Position numbers and translations under genes: made by a program
Part shown: positions 2,722 to 8,820 of the stretch, one piece after another
Layout: each line of letters opens with the position of its first letter
Numbering within the stretch: the first letter of the stretch is position 1
The notes under the pieces: model-generated
What the model was told of the DNA's origin: nothing
The model's database searches: none
What the model saw: only the letters and a program-made list of their open reading frames with translations
Assembly (NCBI GenBank): GCA_018396695.1
Contig: JAGTQU010000003.1
Span: forward strand, 12,899 to 76,898
Source of the DNA: Candidatus Bathyarchaeota archaeon
GTDB taxonomy: Archaea > Thermoproteota > Bathyarchaeia > TCS64
Length of the DNA stretch: 64,000 nt
Direction: 5' to 3'

Positions 2722-2839
2722 GGTCTAAATATTTATTAACATAAATCTCTTATATTTGTTATAGAGTAAAAAAACTATTTTTATAATAGGTATATTAATA
2801 ATTTGGCTATAAAGTTGATTTATAATATAGATCATAATT

Positions 2840-3064
2840 ATGGTGATACTCTTGAATCTTCCTCTAGGATTTTCAGATATAAGCAAACTAATAGCTTTAT
2901 TATCAATTATATTGATAATAACATCTGTTATAATCCACCAAAATTATAGATATTCTAATTTGACTCTTGACAGACATTATCTCGAAAAGGTTGCATTATT
3001 CTTAGGCTTGATCACTCTCATACCAATAGCTATGATTGTATTCGAAATAATTATCTTTAGATAA
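2840..3064 (+). CDS. Small two-TM membrane protein, hypothetical.
   Basis: 74-aa ORF with two hydrophobic helices. AT-rich composition. Confidence 0.3.
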   Translation: MVILLNLPLGFSDISKLIALLSIILIITSVIIHQNYRYSNLTLDRHYLEKVALFLGLITLIPIAMIVFEIIIFR

Positions 3065-3545
3065 TTATTCTTTGCCCGACCTATTGCTCGGCTTTGGTCT
3101 TAAACTCGTGTGAAATCACATCTCAGGTATCCAAGGAACTATTCTCAAGGTTCCATGAAAATAATGTTGTCCTGAATCAAGGGATCTTAAGTCACAAAAA
3201 AGGATATGTGTTTCATGATCTAATTTCGAAAATATGGGGATTCTAGTATCGATGCGTGATGTTCATGCCTCTTACTGACGAATTGTAAATCCCAATGCGA
3301 ATCTATTTAGTCCTTATCGAATGTTCAATTTTATTATTGCAATAATTATGATAATTAAAATAAAAAATTACTTGTATTGCGATTTTAAAATATGAATAAT
3401 GATATTTCATAAACCCTCAGAGAAATTAGAAACATTAAATTGTTTTTTAAAGATGGATATAAAAGATAGTTAATTATATTCAATAATTGGACATTTTTCT
3501 AACCAAAAATAATCTTTTTCAATAAGTTTTTGCTTCACACGGTTA

Positions 3546-5585
3546 ATGGCAGGGTTTAACATGATTCCGATAAGGCGAGAGAGAACCAACTTGAGTTTAA
3601 TCCTAAAAATCTTGGTATTAATATCATCTATAACTATAGTTTATTGGCAAGATTTCACAATTTTGTTAAATGAGGCGCTCAACAGCGATTTAGCTACCCA
3701 CATCCTTGCTATACCCTTTCTAGTCGCCTATATTTGTTTCAGAATTCGTCACAGATTTAGAGCTTTAGCCTCCGATATTCTAGTAAACACTAATTCACCA
3801 GCTAGGAGAGCACTTACAAATATAATAGGTATACTTCTATGTGCCTTCGCATACTTCTTGAGATGGACAGGTTCATACAGTTTTATACCATTAGAATACC
3901 ATATAGCTTCATTACCCATTTTCATCTCAGGGCTAATCCTCCTAATCTTTAACTTTCATGTTCTGAGAGCCCTATTCTTTCCAGTAGTTTTTCTACTTTT
4001 CATGATTCCTCCACCAGTTGAACTCGCTCAACAAGTCGGAGGTTACCTCTCATACTATAGCTCTCATGGAGCCTATAATCTCCTAAAGGCAGTTAATCTC
4101 CCTGTGAGGCTTTCTGATCTAGATGGAAACCCTATAATCTTCGTTAAGATCCCTTCAGGAGAGGAGTACCCATTCGTAATAGATCTGGCATGCTCAGGAA
4201 TCTATTCCCTCATAGGATTCCTTATATTCGCACTTTTCTTGGCATACCTCGTCAGAGGGCCATTAATCAAAAAAACTGCTATCCTACTCTTGGGTCTTCC
4301 TTTAATATACCTACTTAACATTCTGAGAATAACGATCCTTGTAATAATCGGCTTCGCTTCGGGACCTTACGCAGCTCTAAATCTCTTTCACATTTTTGGA
4401 GGCTGGTTCCTAATTCTCATTGGAACCCTCATCATATTGCTCACTTCAGAAAAATTATTAAAAGTAAGCTTGTTTGGCTCAGAACCTATTCACTGCAACG
4501 ATTGTGAAAAATATTCAATTAACCAGTATTGTTCATCATGCGGTAAGATGCATCGATTCAAATATAATTTTTCGAGGCTTAGCCTATTAAAAATAATAAG
4601 CATTTTGGCTATTTCAATAATTCTCATCTTTATACAGGTACCAGTTTATAATCTGACAAATGGATCAGCTGAAATATTCATTAAAAAATATTCTGGAGAA
4701 GTATTCACAACTAATATCTTTCCTAAAATTAACGGCTATGAACTCAAATTTGTATATAGAGATACGTCCTTTGAAGAGATAAGTGGACAGGATGCAGCAC
4801 TAATGTACATGTACGCCCCTAGAGACCCTTCTAAACCTTTAGTATGGGTTGGTCTAGAGATTGGCCCAGCTAAGGCAAACCTCCACACCTGGGAAGTATG
4901 CTTAATTACTTATCCACAATCTCTTGGAAGAGAACCTAGCGTTATACAACTCGATTCGAGGGATATCAAACTTCTAGATAATCCTCCCCTTACAGCCCGT
5001 TACTTTGCTTTTATAGATAAGAAAAATAATTTTACAGAGACAATACTCTACTGGTATACAAAATCAGTTTTCAGATCCGAGGGAGAATATGTAGAGAAAT
5101 GGTCGAAGATCAGCGTGATCAAACTGGACGACAATCCTTCAGATTACCTAGAAGCTGAAGAAGAGATCTATCCATTCGCGAAGAGTATAGCTGAATACTG
5201 GCAGCCTGTGGTTACTTGGTCGAAATTTGCACTTGTTATAGCGTATCATGGAGTAACCCTTTTGCTTTTAACAGGGTCATTTATAATCGCCTCTACAGGG
5301 GTATATCTATATGGATTATTTTCTGAAAAAAGACATGCGAAAATAATGTTTAATAAAATAAATAATATAGAAGATAAAACTATTCTGGAGATAATTAAAA
5401 ATACTGAAAATGACGTAATAACTGAAAAGTATGTATCATTAAAATTTGTTGAACGTTTAGGAAAACAGATAGATGAAGATAATATATTAGCAAAACTTTT
5501 AGAAGCAGAGAAAAACGGTCTGATTGAAAGGAAAATCATCAGCTTAAATGACAATCCATACATAACTTGGAAGGCTAAATTCTAG
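3546..5585 (+). CDS. Exosortase/archaeosortase-family transpeptidase-like membrane protein. It is fused to a CxxC...CxxC zinc ribbon, an EpsI-like extracytoplasmic domain and a C-terminal winged-helix-like cytoplasmic tail.
   Basis: N-terminal roughly 300 aa are polytopic. They carry the motif DLACSGIYSL (putative catalytic Cys) followed by LNILRITIL (Asn-x-x-Arg) and a later His in HIFGGW, which is the pattern of the EpsH/archaeosortase family. Then comes CNDCEKY...CSSCGKM. A TM helix and a roughly 190-aa domain containing LHTWEVCL follow, which is EpsI-like. A final TM helix precedes a roughly 95-aa charged tail. Confidence 0.6.
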   Translation: MAGFNMIPIRRERTNLSLILKILVLISSITIVYWQDFTILLNEALNSDLATHILAIPFLVAYICFRIRHRFRALASDILVNTNSPARRALTNIIGILLCAFAYFLRWTGSYSFIPLEYHIASLPIFISGLILLIFNFHVLRALFFPVVFLLFMIPPPVELAQQVGGYLSYYSSHGAYNLLKAVNLPVRLSDLDGNPIIFVKIPSGEEYPFVIDLACSGIYSLIGFLIFALFLAYLVRGPLIKKTAILLLGLPLIYLLNILRITILVIIGFASGPYAALNLFHIFGGWFLILIGTLIILLTSEKLLKVSLFGSEPIHCNDCEKYSINQYCSSCGKMHRFKYNFSRLSLLKIISILAISIILIFIQVPVYNLTNGSAEIFIKKYSGEVFTTNIFPKINGYELKFVYRDTSFEEISGQDAALMYMYAPRDPSKPLVWVGLEIGPAKANLHTWEVCLITYPQSLGREPSVIQLDSRDIKLLDNPPLTARYFAFIDKKNNFTETILYWYTKSVFRSEGEYVEKWSKISVIKLDDNPSDYLEAEEEIYPFAKSIAEYWQPVVTWSKFALVIAYHGVTLLLLTGSFIIASTGVYLYGLFSEKRHAKIMFNKINNIEDKTILEIIKNTENDVITEKYVSLKFVERLGKQIDEDNILAKLLEAEKNGLIERKIISLNDNPYITWKAKF

Positions 5586-5636: not shown

Positions 5637-6950
5637 TTGTGCACGGAAAGACCTGAGATGAGCTTTAAACTACTTAGATATCATTATCAGCTTCAACAAT
5701 CGAAGAAATTGAATAAGGAAATACTTAAAGAGATTCAACTTCGAAGATTAAAGGAAATAATATCACATGCTTATCTCAACGTTCCATTCTATCATGAAAA
5801 GTTTGAGAAAGCAAAAATAAAGCCAGAGGATATAAAAACACTGGATGACCTCGAAAAAATCCCATTGACAACGAAAGCCGAAATACAATCCACTCCCTTG
5901 AATTATCTAGTTTCCAGATACGTAAATTTGAATAATTGCGACAGATCGTTAACCAGTGGCACTACGGGAATGCCTCTGACAATAATAATTGACAGAGATT
6001 ATATGGATTTTCAAGTTGCATTATTCGCCAGAACGTATTTTGAAGATGGAGTAAAATTATGGCATAAAATGATGAGAATAGTTGATCCTTTATATTTGCC
6101 TAAGAAAGGGGATTGGTATCAAAAAATAGGATTAATGAAAACGAAGTACGTCTCTCTATTCGAACCCATCGAGAAACAATTTTCTATAGCAAAAAAATAT
6201 AAACCCGACATATTGAGAGGTTTCAGCTCTCAAATCGCTTTGTTGGCATACCATGCTCGTGAGAATGGTGAAGTCTTGAAGCCTAAAATAATTTTCACCT
6301 CAGCAGAATACCTTGACAAAGCTTCCAGAAACCTGATAGAATCAACATTCCTAAGCCAACTATTCGACCTTTACATAAGCACAGAGTTTGGGCTAATGGC
6401 TTGGGAGTGTAAGGCCCATTCAGGGTATCATACTAACATTGAAAGCGTTATGATCGAATTCGTAAAAGATGGTGAACCTGTCACAGATGGTGAGAGTGGG
6501 GAAATAATCTGCACAAACCTCGTTAACAGAGCAATGCCTCTAATCAGATACGACTTAGGAGACGTAGGCATCCCTACGGAGGAAGAATGCACATGTGGGA
6601 GCACTCTGCCTCTCATCAGACTCGTCGAGGGTCGAACAGGAGATTTCCTCGTCACACCGGATAATCGAATAATATCGCCGACGATATTTTTCCCTTATCC
6701 CTTTAACGATGTTGAAGGGATAAAACAATTCAGAATAATACAGGAGAAAAAGGATAAGCTAATCATACAGCTAGTTGCAGATGAAGATTTTAAAAGAAAT
6801 GAACTAGCCCTAGAAAAAGCAAGAAAAGAGATCTGGAAAGTATTCGGTGAAAACATGAATGTTGAATTCCAATTTCTAGACAAAATTAAAAGGGATAATG
6901 AAAGAAAATATAGAAAGATAGTGTCGAAAATACCTATTCATCTCACTTAA
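5637..6950 (+). CDS. Adenylate-forming enzyme of the phenylacetate-CoA ligase / CapK / coenzyme F390 synthetase family.
   Basis: The AMP-binding signature SGTTGMPLTI is present. Length (about 430 aa) and overall motif order match the PaaK family. The gene lies immediately downstream of the exosortase-like gene on the same strand. Confidence 0.75.
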   Translation: MCTERPEMSFKLLRYHYQLQQSKKLNKEILKEIQLRRLKEIISHAYLNVPFYHEKFEKAKIKPEDIKTLDDLEKIPLTTKAEIQSTPLNYLVSRYVNLNNCDRSLTSGTTGMPLTIIIDRDYMDFQVALFARTYFEDGVKLWHKMMRIVDPLYLPKKGDWYQKIGLMKTKYVSLFEPIEKQFSIAKKYKPDILRGFSSQIALLAYHARENGEVLKPKIIFTSAEYLDKASRNLIESTFLSQLFDLYISTEFGLMAWECKAHSGYHTNIESVMIEFVKDGEPVTDGESGEIICTNLVNRAMPLIRYDLGDVGIPTEEECTCGSTLPLIRLVEGRTGDFLVTPDNRIISPTIFFPYPFNDVEGIKQFRIIQEKKDKLIIQLVADEDFKRNELALEKARKEIWKVFGENMNVEFQFLDKIKRDNERKYRKIVSKIPIHLT

Positions 6951-7050
6951 TGATCTTCTTCCCTTTTCTACTTATCCATAAAATAATTACGTAAAACTCT
7001 TTTCTAAAGATTTAAATAACCATATTAAACATTAACAAATAGGTGAAAGA

Positions 7051-7278
7051 TTGAATAAGAATAATAGGAGAATCCTGGCGGCTTCACTGGTGATTATAGG
7101 CTTAACGCTGATATTCATAATAAATGGAGTATTATTTGCGCCTCAACCAGAGCCTACAGTTACTCCAACAGCTGAAAACACAATGGCTCCAGGATTCCAT
7201 GTCCCTGAGATCCCTGGAACTCTAGTTGCCTTAGTATTGGGAGTTATGGGGCTGTTAGTGTTTTATTTAAAGAAGTAG
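7051..7278 (+). CDS. 75-aa protein consisting of an N-terminal signal anchor, a roughly 25-aa Pro/Thr-rich segment, and a PEP-CTERM-like C-terminal sorting signal (VPEIPGT, then a hydrophobic helix, then KK). It is the putative cognate exosortase substrate.
   Basis: The N-terminus is MNKNNRR followed by a 23-aa hydrophobic stretch. The C-terminus is VPEIPGTLVALVLGVMGLLVFYLKK, which matches the tripartite Pro-Glu-Pro / TM / basic architecture of PEP-CTERM and PGF-CTERM signals. The gene is directly downstream of the sortase-ligase pair. Confidence 0.5.
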   Translation: MNKNNRRILAASLVIIGLTLIFIINGVLFAPQPEPTVTPTAENTMAPGFHVPEIPGTLVALVLGVMGLLVFYLKK

Positions 7279-7379
7279 AAAAATAATCTAATAGTTAACG
7301 TGTCTTGATTACTGATTTTCTTAACGGTTTTTCTATATTGCCTACGACTTCGATCTTATAGGCGAATAGTGGAGGCTAT

Positions 7380-8201
7380 ATGGAAATGGTAGAGAATTCC
7401 AGCATTGAAAAGATGGAGAAGCAGATAGAGTCCCTTGAATCGGAGATTAGGAGGCTTAAGAGGAAGCCGACAGGCGCCATAGGGACTCTGATTCTGGCTT
7501 TAGGGCTGATGCTCCTAGCCTTAGCCATCATCGTTGAGCATAACATATCAGCCTTCATCGGAATAGCCTTAACCTTCTGGGGAGCCCTCCTCCTATACGT
7601 CAGGCCTACAAGCTTCGTTAGAAAAGAGATCCTCAACGTTTTATCTACTCAATCCCTTTCCGAGATGGCGGAGATTATTGATGAACTAGGTTACCGAGGG
7701 GCCCCATTCCACGTTTCGCCTCCAAGCCTTCTCGGGATGAGGAGAACGAGGCTCATAATCCCGAAAAACCCTCTCTCGAATCTAGGAGAAGATGCTTCCA
7801 TAGATGAGTTAACGATTACGCCAACACTGATTTCGGTTGATCCCCCCGGGCAGGAGCTATCAAGCCTGATTGAGGAGGAGCTGAGAACAAACTTCTCGGC
7901 GAGCAGCTTAGAGTATGTGGAAAACAATCTTGAGAAGGCTCTGGTGGAAGGGTTAGAACTAGTCGAGTCGTTCGCTATGGAGCAGGAGGGGGAGAGAGTA
8001 TCCGCTAAGTTCAAAGGTAGTGTATTCTTCGACGTTGCGGAAAGGTTAAGCGGTTTGAAGATTAATCCTGCATTTTGCGACCCGCTTACAAGCGCCTTCG
8101 CATGCATCCTCGCAAGGGTGACCCAGAAGAGGGTCACTATAGAAAAGATGGAGCTGAAGCCCGAGGAGAAGACCGTCACAAGCACATACAGGCTTATTTA
8201 A
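7380..8201 (+). CDS. Hypothetical protein with an N-terminal coiled coil, two TM helices and a C-terminal soluble domain.
   Basis: ORF translation. This is the first GC-normal gene after the AT-rich island. Confidence 0.4.
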   Translation: MEMVENSSIEKMEKQIESLESEIRRLKRKPTGAIGTLILALGLMLLALAIIVEHNISAFIGIALTFWGALLLYVRPTSFVRKEILNVLSTQSLSEMAEIIDELGYRGAPFHVSPPSLLGMRRTRLIIPKNPLSNLGEDASIDELTITPTLISVDPPGQELSSLIEEELRTNFSASSLEYVENNLEKALVEGLELVESFAMEQEGERVSAKFKGSVFFDVAERLSGLKINPAFCDPLTSAFACILARVTQKRVTIEKMELKPEEKTVTSTYRLI

Positions 8202-8220: not shown

Positions 8221-8820
8221 TTGACTGGAAAAAAGGAGCTAGAGGAGAAGCTCATAGAAATCATCGAAGCCTTCTCAACTTCTACGGTGAAGGAGCTCCT
8301 CGAAATAGCTCATCTGCAGCTTTCCATCCCAAAGAAGGAGCTGTTGGACATTATCCTCCGCCTACAAGACGAGGGGAGGATAAGCCTTAAGCTGCCGGAG
8401 AAAAGAGCCAAATACAGTTTAAGGGAATATTTCTTTAAAGGAGGGGTCTACTGGTTCTGGTGCATTATCCTTCTCTCAACCACAGCAATGTTGTCGATCT
8501 TCCTGATACCTGAAGACGCTTACCCCATAATCCTTGCAAGATACGTCCTCGGCTCACTCTTCGTCCTCTTCCTACCAGGATTCAGCCTCGTAAAAGCCCT
8601 CTTCCCTAAAAAGGAATTAGATAATGTCGAGAGGATGGTGTTGAGTTTAGGGTTGAGCCTAGCGATTGTGCCTATCTTCGGGCTACTCCTCAACTATACT
8701 CCATGGGGGATAAGGCTTACCCCTATAACCCTAGTGCTCCTTTCTTTCACCATCTTTCTCTCATTTGTGGCTATGATTAGAGAGTATAATGAAAAGTTTC
8801 CTAAACCTGAGGAAGAATAA
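8221..8820 (+). CDS. DUF1616-like archaeal membrane protein (N-terminal wHTH-like segment plus 4 TM helices). TTG start.
   Basis: N-terminal helical domain followed by four hydrophobic helices. The architecture is typical of the archaeal DUF1616 family. Confidence 0.4.
   Translation: MTGKKELEEKLIEIIEAFSTSTVKELLEIAHLQLSIPKKELLDIILRLQDEGRISLKLPEKRAKYSLREYFFKGGVYWFWCIILLSTTAMLSIFLIPEDAYPIILARYVLGSLFVLFLPGFSLVKALFPKKELDNVERMVLSLGLSLAIVPIFGLLLNYTPWGIRLTPITLVLLSFTIFLSFVAMIREYNEKFPKPEEE

Follow-up and report, generated by a model that had tools for sequence, protein, structure and literature searches.

The closest described relatives of the system reported here are found in bacteria, where EpsI is either fused to the exosortase EpsH or encoded beside it, where fusions of EpsH to CAAX-type proteins have also been recorded, and where PEP-CTERM tags occur that were not found in Archaea (Haft et al. 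2006, PMC1569441). Archaeal enzymes of the same superfamily, ArtA (PGF-CTERM) and ArtC (PEF-CTERM), likewise go with a tripartite C-terminal tag. Here we describe a gene of this kind (3546..5585, + strand) in a 64,000-nucleotide stretch of a Candidatus Bathyarchaeota archaeon genome (contig JAGTQU010000003.1), referred to below as the window; all features lie on its + strand unless stated otherwise. The open reading frame (ORF) clearly encodes a member of the exosortase/archaeosortase superfamily. With the bacterial PEP-CTERM/EpsH system and with XrtD (TIGR04152, VPLPA-CTERM) and XrtW (NF038142), the best-scoring curated models, the protein shares a core of eight transmembrane (TM) helices with a Cys/Arg/His signature; with the EpsH-EpsI fusions, a C-terminal extension consisting of a membrane helix and an outer domain; and with the PEP-CTERM/EpsH system, a linkage to P-E-containing tags and polysaccharide genes. 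Unlike the bacterial fusions, it belongs to an archaeal host, its outer domain is barely recognisable as EpsI, and it has three further elements, namely a zinc ribbon, a second membrane helix and a winged helix. We consider it fairly likely that this protein is the sorting enzyme of a Bathyarchaeia-wide, PEP-CTERM/exosortase-like system, and that its ribbon and winged helix together serve for docking and not for DNA binding.

The EpsH-type catalytic core (residues 14-304; 3585..4457) was delimited by hydropathy, by the helices of an AlphaFold2 (AF2) model and by two profiles, PF09721 (Exosortase_EpsH, residues 29-299, E 1.8e-37, 129.5 bits against a cut-off of 25.7) and the TIGR04178 signature (residues 211-300, 62.2 bits against a cut-off of 23). 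Residues 300-679 gave no match in the Pfam scan of the window protein. An earlier note on this DNA had named a sortase core; the core is that of an exosortase (EpsH type) and not of an enzyme with the sortase fold. In an alignment of 56 homologues (identity 39-88%), from which all family counts given below are taken, a match to the exosortase/archaeosortase superfamily was obtained for 56/56 members. The alignment points to Cys216 (codon 4191..4193, in the motif D-L-A-C-S-G), Arg261 (4326-4328) and His282 (4389-4391) as candidate catalytic residues: position 216 is Cys in 54/56 sequences and Ser in 2/56, while Arg261 and His282 are present in all 56/56. In the two homologues with Ser216 the serine might act as the nucleophile, the copies might be inactive, or the Ser might come from sequencing errors.

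Many named subfamilies match the window protein at E up to 1 (including XrtA-E, J, O, S, T, V, W, X, ArtA and ArtC), and no named exosortase or archaeosortase subfamily reaches its curated cut-off with it. The best scores, for XrtD (97.1 bits against 400), XrtW (90.8 against 425) and XrtA (78.8 against 208), are far below the thresholds, at about a quarter of the cut-off for XrtD and XrtW, and the archaeosortase models score 25.8 bits against 75 (ArtA) and 19.5 against 100 (ArtC), the core being nearer to the bacterial exosortase models than to the archaeosortase ones. Other members of the family give subfamily E-values in a range like that of the window protein (best 2.1e-35, with XrtD), and the NCBIfam release used holds no model naming a Bathyarchaeia exosortase family. 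The protein thus represents an unnamed exosortase subfamily which, in the loci recovered, is essentially restricted to Bathyarchaeia. Its length, already pointed out as unusual, is indeed greater at 679 amino acids (aa) than that of every matching curated exosortase model (155-522 positions), XrtA having 261, XrtD 486, XrtW 494, XrtE 516 and XrtJ 522 positions. The ArtA and ArtC models, of about 270 positions, lack all four appended modules. Exosortase E with its CAAX-type protease (TIGR04162) is a precedent for the gain of a domain by fusion; its fused partner is, however, a membrane protease and not a cytoplasmic metal-binding or winged-helix module as in the Bathyarchaeia protein.

The whole gene, coding for the exosortase-family protein with its four appended modules, is a single ORF that starts with ATG and runs for 679 aa with 0 internal stops; M6 at 3561 is a possible alternative start. 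The start of the NCBI call (P0001, 640 aa) is a TTG, codon 40 (region 3546-3665 of the window), so that this call lacks the first membrane helix with the conserved K21, Q35 and D36. Since this start removes the conserved TM1, the 679-aa ORF is the better gene call, and the NCBI start is probably mis-called. A joining of two or three genes through a frameshift or an assembly error could in principle produce such a long ORF, and split copies of the gene (loci L080, L082 and L083) show that assembly errors do hit it. Nevertheless, this explanation was ruled out and is regarded as exceedingly improbable, given more than 330 end-to-end homologues and conservation that spans the boundaries. Of the candidates scored in a database search with the 679-aa protein, 334 had E-values up to 0.001, and among the best 120 most are 660-720 aa long, with query coverage of 94-100% and identity of 39-88%; an unbroken ORF of this size is thus present in hundreds of assemblies that are independent of one another and differ in source. 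The alignment of 56 homologues runs without a break across all domain boundaries, with R261, H282, C329, C332, D669 and P671 invariant, and the whole-chain model described below is confident. The earlier note had proposed a single 679-aa polypeptide with the order core, ribbon, outer domain and tail, and had suggested checking for merged genes; both the single chain and the order are borne out end to end in the 56 homologues. Its view of the architecture as unusual holds in comparison with known exosortases, while within Bathyarchaeia the arrangement is the norm and no oddity.

A survey of loci, in which one genome per species was scanned, gave 94 relatives, of which 80 loci were kept. These are labelled Bathyarchaeia or Bathyarchaeota, except a few that are labelled Nitrososphaerota or "uncultured archaeon". 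The gene is a single ORF in most of the 80 loci, and some genomes carry two copies. Every module is also kept in a divergent paralogue clade of 32-36% identity. In a few metagenome-assembled genomes (loci L080, L082, L083, L078 and L035) the gene is divided into two or three ORFs, and these broken copies are probably assembly frameshifts or pseudogenes. A few homologues (P0025, P0039, P0101, P0024; locus L086) are labelled by source as Hodarchaeales/Hodarchaeota or Anaerolineae, which might reflect either lateral transfer or wrong contig binning; a contig labelled Hodarchaeales has a similar neighbourhood, with CapK-like, flippase and DUF1616 genes.

Hydropathy divides the chain into the core of eight TM helices up to about residue 302, a soluble segment (303-343), TM9 (about 344-367), a second soluble segment (368-558), TM10 (about 559-588) and a tail of 91 aa. 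TM9 (4575..4646; AF2 helix 344-362) is predicted to lead the chain back outside, and TM10 (5220..5309; AF2 single helix 569-604) to return it to the cytoplasm. With eight helices in the core, the loop carrying the ribbon would therefore be cytoplasmic, residues 368-558 would lie outside and the tail inside. The cytoplasmic position of ribbon and tail, as claimed in the earlier note, fits the positive-inside pattern of charges, the median charge being +6 for the ribbon loop, +4 for the juxtamembrane segment and -5 for the outer domain. It also fits the density of N-X-S/T sequons, which drops about fourfold from 13.4 per 1000 in the outer domain to 3.5 per 1000 in the tail, and a variant protein (P0070) in which an FkbM-type S-adenosylmethionine methyltransferase, taken to be a cytoplasmic enzyme, follows the winged helix. 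The AF2 model of the whole chain, built on the 56-sequence alignment, has a mean predicted local distance difference test score (pLDDT) of 83.3 and a predicted template-modelling score (pTM) of 0.85. When this full model was compared with the PDB by Foldseek, no exosortase-like entry for the core was among the listed matches.

Residues 314-336 (4485..4553) are predicted to form a cytoplasmic zinc ribbon, as judged from the Cys pattern, the charge and weak Pfam matches, with four ligands kept in the family. In the window protein the pattern reads C317-x2-C320-x8-C329-x2-C332. The Cys4 ribbon of the earlier note is thus present in the window protein, and a CxxC...CxxC pattern occurs in 38/56 members, with C329 and C332 invariant; in the remaining 18/56 the second ribbon Cys is replaced, and the pattern is a looser C-x(1-4)-[H/C/D] followed by CxxC. 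His stands in the column next to the second ribbon Cys in 16 sequences. The DZR or zinc-ribbon models of Pfam gave weak matches in 24/56 members.

The extracytoplasmic alpha/beta domain (residues 368-558; 4647..5219) was defined from the AF2 model, sub-threshold matches to PF11984 and Foldseek. It is acidic and rich in sequons, and its residues 398-551 are modelled as a seven-strand sheet with three helices. The top PDB matches of the full model were weak (E 0.04-0.3, probability up to 0.99, about 160-180 columns) and comprised 3lyd, Apa, MTC28, RseB and alpha/beta sandwiches of the PsbP type; covering an alpha/beta region of 150-200 residues, they are taken to correspond to the outer domain. 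PF11984 (DUF3485, EpsI) was found at E up to 1 in 12/56 full-length members. With isolated domains the best score was 21.1 bits (E 2.7e-4) against a cut-off of 26.1, and the alignments, obtained for 4/10 domain sequences, were colinear (protein 23-185 to profile 3-157). The outer domain of the window protein itself gave no match to PF11984, and TIGR02914 did not match the consensus or any of six outer-domain sequences. A tblastn search of PLSDB plasmids with the core, seeking bacterial EpsH and EpsI genes, found nothing. The position is that of EpsI, TM9 and then the outer domain of 190 aa following straight after the core. As the placement is right in the light of the known fusion and adjacency (Haft et al. 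2006, PMC1569441) but membership is sub-threshold, the domain is labelled a probable distant relative of EpsI (DUF3485), as far as its sequence allows. Of the EpsI-like domain claimed earlier, then, the position and the colinear PF11984 alignments speak in favour, while all scores stay under the cut-off and TIGR02914 gives nothing.

Candidate substrates were sought in 84 sequences, the window and 83 related loci, by scanning for ORFs ending in a hydrophobic helix with basic residues and then applying a stricter tag pattern. This gave 66 tagged ORFs in 46/84 sequences, compared with 1/3693 internal control windows. The tag consists of F-V-[V/I]-P-E-x-[P/A/G]-x-G, in which P-E is invariant, about 19 residues rich in Ala, Leu and Gly, and K-K-R-K-K. 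Its consensus FVVPE-x-x-x-G differs from the VPEP or VPLPA of bacterial systems, and several of the Bathyarchaeia tags read VPEF, a likeness to the PEF-CTERM of ArtC. An N-terminal hydrophobic signal is present in 58/66 of the tagged ORFs, their median length is 199 aa, and in many cases the exosortase gene is their immediate upstream neighbour. No conserved small substrate was seen beside the exosortase in the three loci looked at first; the wider scan found the substrates. Of ten tagged proteins compared with the PEP-CTERM model (TIGR02595), one scored 20.1 bits against a cut-off of 16 and one was borderline at 15.4, while the other eight, including the 75-aa ORF of the window, had no match; PF07589 gave 15.5 against a cut-off of 20.7 for one further protein, and the PEF-CTERM models matched none of the ten. 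Judging from their sequences, the 66 tagged neighbouring secreted proteins are probable substrates of the exosortase.

In the window, the candidate substrate is a 75-aa protein (7051..7278), identified by tag pattern and synteny, with an N-terminal signal or anchor, a Pro/Thr linker and a terminus of the form HVPEIPGT-TM-KK, the ORF ending in HVPEIPGTLVALVLGVMGLLVFYLKK. A related locus (L084), whose exosortase is 79% identical, shares the cassette, and its small gene (4232-4459) keeps VPEIPGT while the linker has diverged; the synteny and the retention of this motif despite the divergence of the linker indicate that the 75-aa ORF is a real gene. At the loci of the divergent paralogue (32-36% identity; L055, L058, L060, L065, L067, L068, L073 and L074) the neighbours differ, being a dockerin protein, a GT2 and a secreted protein whose terminus reads IPDFP-TM-KKK, with a flippase gene and a DUF7982-like gene further downstream, which suggests that the exosortase paralogues use different variants of the tag.

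The C-terminal part of the protein consists of a basic juxtamembrane helix (residues 589-606; 5310-5363) and, after it, a cytoplasmic winged helix-turn-helix (HTH) domain (residues 607-679; 5364..5582) predicted by AF2 and Foldseek. The tail is charged and mainly helical, with helices at 608-619, 627-638 and 644-656 and strands at 660-667 and 670-677, and has a pLDDT of about 90 within the full model; folded in isolation with 42 sequences, it gave a pLDDT of 93.8 and the same succession (helices 13-24, 32-43 and 49-61, strands 65-72 and 75-82). The winged-helix-like tail proposed in the earlier note, which had asked for a structure prediction, is therefore a fold of three helices and a beta-hairpin and not a disordered segment. 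The best 50 matches of the tail in the PDB were all winged-helix structures (50/50; probability about 1.0, template-modelling scores 0.6-0.71, E 0.008-0.05), among them Mur/Fur/Nur, PadR, BlaI, ArsR, Orc1 and RPC34. A profile of the tail compared with the sequences of the PDB aligned best, though not significantly (E 0.16), with the winged helix at the C-terminus of an archaeal MCM (2m45; 53 residues in register), an example of a winged helix which does not read DNA sequence; this match is a lead only. When 1.84 billion cluster representatives were searched with the same profile, 363 proteins were obtained at E up to 0.001; in the 150 listed matches the tail is nearly always at or near the C-terminus, and ten inspected matches were family members, fragments of them or members with extra fusions. 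As the inspected matches all belong to this family, the tail appears to be family-specific.

By analogy with known sorting systems, the most probable function of the enzyme is to cleave secreted surface proteins and to anchor them. These proteins, carrying an N-terminal signal peptide and the C-terminal tag, would be retained in the membrane by the helix of the tag after export. The core, with Cys216, Arg261 and His282 near the outer face, would cut at P-E via an acyl-enzyme and transfer the protein to a lipid or glycan acceptor of the cell surface, as do sortase and ArtA. The outer domain (368-558) may sit beside the active site in an accessory role, the one EpsI has in the bacterial EpsH-EpsI fusions. 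The ribbon (314-336) and the winged helix (607-679) would act together as a cytoplasmic docking module, with no binding of DNA, coupling the enzyme to cytoplasmic or membrane partners encoded in the same cassette, the candidates being the DUF7982-like protein and the machinery that builds and flips glycans; the module might also bind the sorting tag at its basic end, which is cytoplasmic. The analysis shows the domains with their conservation, the argument for the topology, the link to tagged proteins and the cassette; the catalysis, the acceptor and the role of the two cytoplasmic modules are all inferred.

The preference for docking over DNA binding comes from a near-neutral domain with an acidic recognition helix and an acidic wing tip. 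For the winged helix the median net charge is 0 and the isoelectric point 6.5. The median charge of helix 3 is -2; E653 occurs in 40/56 and E655 in 47/56 members, and the N-terminal half of the helix, which would normally read DNA, is variable. Within the hairpin D669, P671 and W675 are conserved, and the acidic wing tip D669-E-P671 is the most invariant feature of the tail. These features bear directly on a different explanation, in which the protein is a membrane-tethered one-component regulator, its winged helix, perhaps with the ribbon, binding the promoters of the cassette, so that the load on the sorting site or the ectodomain would control the transcription of surface-protein and glycan genes. 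Regulators of the ToxR/CadC type are membrane-tethered in this way. Such a function could be supposed from the top Foldseek matches, all DNA-binding winged helices (Fur, PadR, BlaI, ArsR and Orc1), from the conserved K650, R/K662 and K676 and the basic juxtamembrane helix, from basic C-terminal extensions in some members, and from the occurrence of a second winged-helix-like membrane protein (DUF1616) in the cassette and of a free HTH_45 regulator encoded in 7 loci. We regard it as unlikely, as the domain is neutral to acidic and its invariant wing tip is D-E-P, whereas the wings of DNA-binding domains are usually basic, and as the winged helix begins only about 18 residues past TM10, at the end of one continuous helix. 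In addition, no HTH family is among the 25 Pfam families matched by most of the 56 members, and a search for operators in two AT-rich regions (2722-3600 and 6900-7400) yielded no convincing palindrome among numerous weak inverted repeats. The earlier note had left open whether the cytoplasmic module binds nucleic acid or protein; the charge pattern disfavours the former, and the docking to a protein is what we infer. A broader form of the signalling idea, in which the winged helix and ribbon bind either DNA or a transcription factor and the occupancy of the site or the ectodomain sets the expression of the cassette, seems quite doubtful to us; if true, the protein would unite a sorting transpeptidase with a one-component regulator tethered to the membrane, a combination undescribed for sortase-like enzymes.

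The two cytoplasmic modules might also be purely structural, bracing the extra helices and the ectodomain against the core or serving oligomerisation, with no external ligand. The pTM of the whole-chain model suggests a compact, fixed arrangement, the most invariant residues of the tail (D669, P671 and W675) are in the hairpin and could pack on the core, and the tail is found only in the Bathyarchaeia exosortase family. Bacterial EpsH-EpsI fusions, on the other hand, exist without both modules, XrtD and XrtW being 486 and 494 positions long, and the maintenance of a metal site and of an 80-aa fold in every lineage, and in two paralogue clades, suggests more than bracing, which makes a purely structural role rather improbable.

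Several observations weigh against the sorting enzyme with a docking module as proposed here. The homology of the outer domain to EpsI is sub-threshold, and both the cut at P-E and the acceptor are assumptions made by analogy. Nearly all the structures that resemble the tail are regulators that bind DNA. A basic extension with a mean charge of +4.4 follows the winged helix in 23/56 members, and in the divergent clade D669 is replaced by N and helix 3 is more basic, so that not all members would offer an acidic surface for docking. Finally, of three fused homologues two would speak for the proposed system if they are true fusions, P0206 (1209 aa; a Wzx-type flippase before the whole exosortase protein) and P0070 (960 aa; the FkbM methyltransferase behind the winged helix); in P0159 (917 aa) there is an apparent run-on into DUF7982-like sequence, with the ectodomain missing, which may be an artefact. 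All three are metagenome gene calls and could have arisen by read-through.

Among the papers listed by full-text literature searches, none was on an exosortase or PEP-CTERM system of Bathyarchaeia, and none on an exosortase with a winged helix or a zinc ribbon; the type of enzyme is known, whereas its cytoplasmic zinc ribbon and winged helix are not known to have been described for such enzymes. Bathyarchaeia are among the most abundant archaea of anoxic sediments and soils, and to our knowledge almost nothing is known of their cell surface. The gene would define a conserved sorting system of Bathyarchaeia and its tag, located beside dockerin-bearing proteins and glycan genes and more like the bacterial PEP-CTERM/exosortase systems than the archaeosortases known so far, and the tag should allow the anchored surface proteome of these archaea to be listed from sequence alone. 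The cytoplasmic additions may be a first hint that an exosortase is coupled to the cell interior. Together with the flippase and methyltransferase fusions, the ribbon and winged helix may give a handle on the coordination of exosortases with polysaccharide synthesis and on the role of EpsI.

The surroundings of the gene were analysed by clustering the neighbour proteins across 84 loci, and the core genes of the cassette so defined all lie within the window (2840-3064, 3546-5585, 7380-8201 and 8221-8820). The most conserved neighbour is a DUF7982-like protein of 273 aa with a hairpin of two TM helices (7380..8201), found in 55/84 loci, usually as the next gene downstream, and labelled PF25939 in L003, L084 and L085. 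It is followed by a DUF1616 membrane protein (8221..8820; PF07760, 103 bits), present in 36 loci. The DUF1616 proteins of the cassette (8221-8820 in the window, 7338-7916 in L002, 13513-14127 in L003) start with a winged-helix-like segment of about 60 aa, after which come the membrane helices. A common origin of this segment and the tail of the exosortase was considered and rejected (hhalign P about 0.01, probability 3-4%), and a hidden Markov model of the tail had no match among the neighbour proteins. A 74-aa protein with two TM helices and no Pfam match (2840..3064) belongs to a BLAST cluster found in 31 loci; its gene usually follows that of the DUF7982-like protein, and in the window it is upstream of the exosortase gene.

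Between the exosortase and the substrate gene lies a gene for an adenylate-forming enzyme of the CapK/PaaK/F390-synthetase type (5637..6950), which was matched by the DVU_1553 family, PaaK and F390-related models of NCBIfam, all below cut-off; PF27533 (CapK_C) occurs at the same relative position in L002 and L084. Other recurring members of the cassette are Wzx-type flippases, GT2 (20 loci), an epimerase and the tagged proteins. Small secreted proteins with a type I dockerin form the second commonest neighbour cluster, with 87 genes in 47 loci (among L004-L083, e.g. 622-1176 in L079), which hints at surface assemblies of the cohesin-dockerin type in Bathyarchaeia.

The G+C content is 0.31-0.36 over 1-6 kb and 0.41 over 6-8 kb, the rest of the window being mostly at 0.38-0.48, and the low-G+C region of the cassette may indicate a variable island of surface or glycan genes. 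On the opposite strand, immediately before the cassette (1612-2721, - strand), the window also encodes a glycoside hydrolase of the GH5 type, which has a signal anchor and a long linker of Pro/Ser (SPPASPSPSPSPQPPPSPSG).

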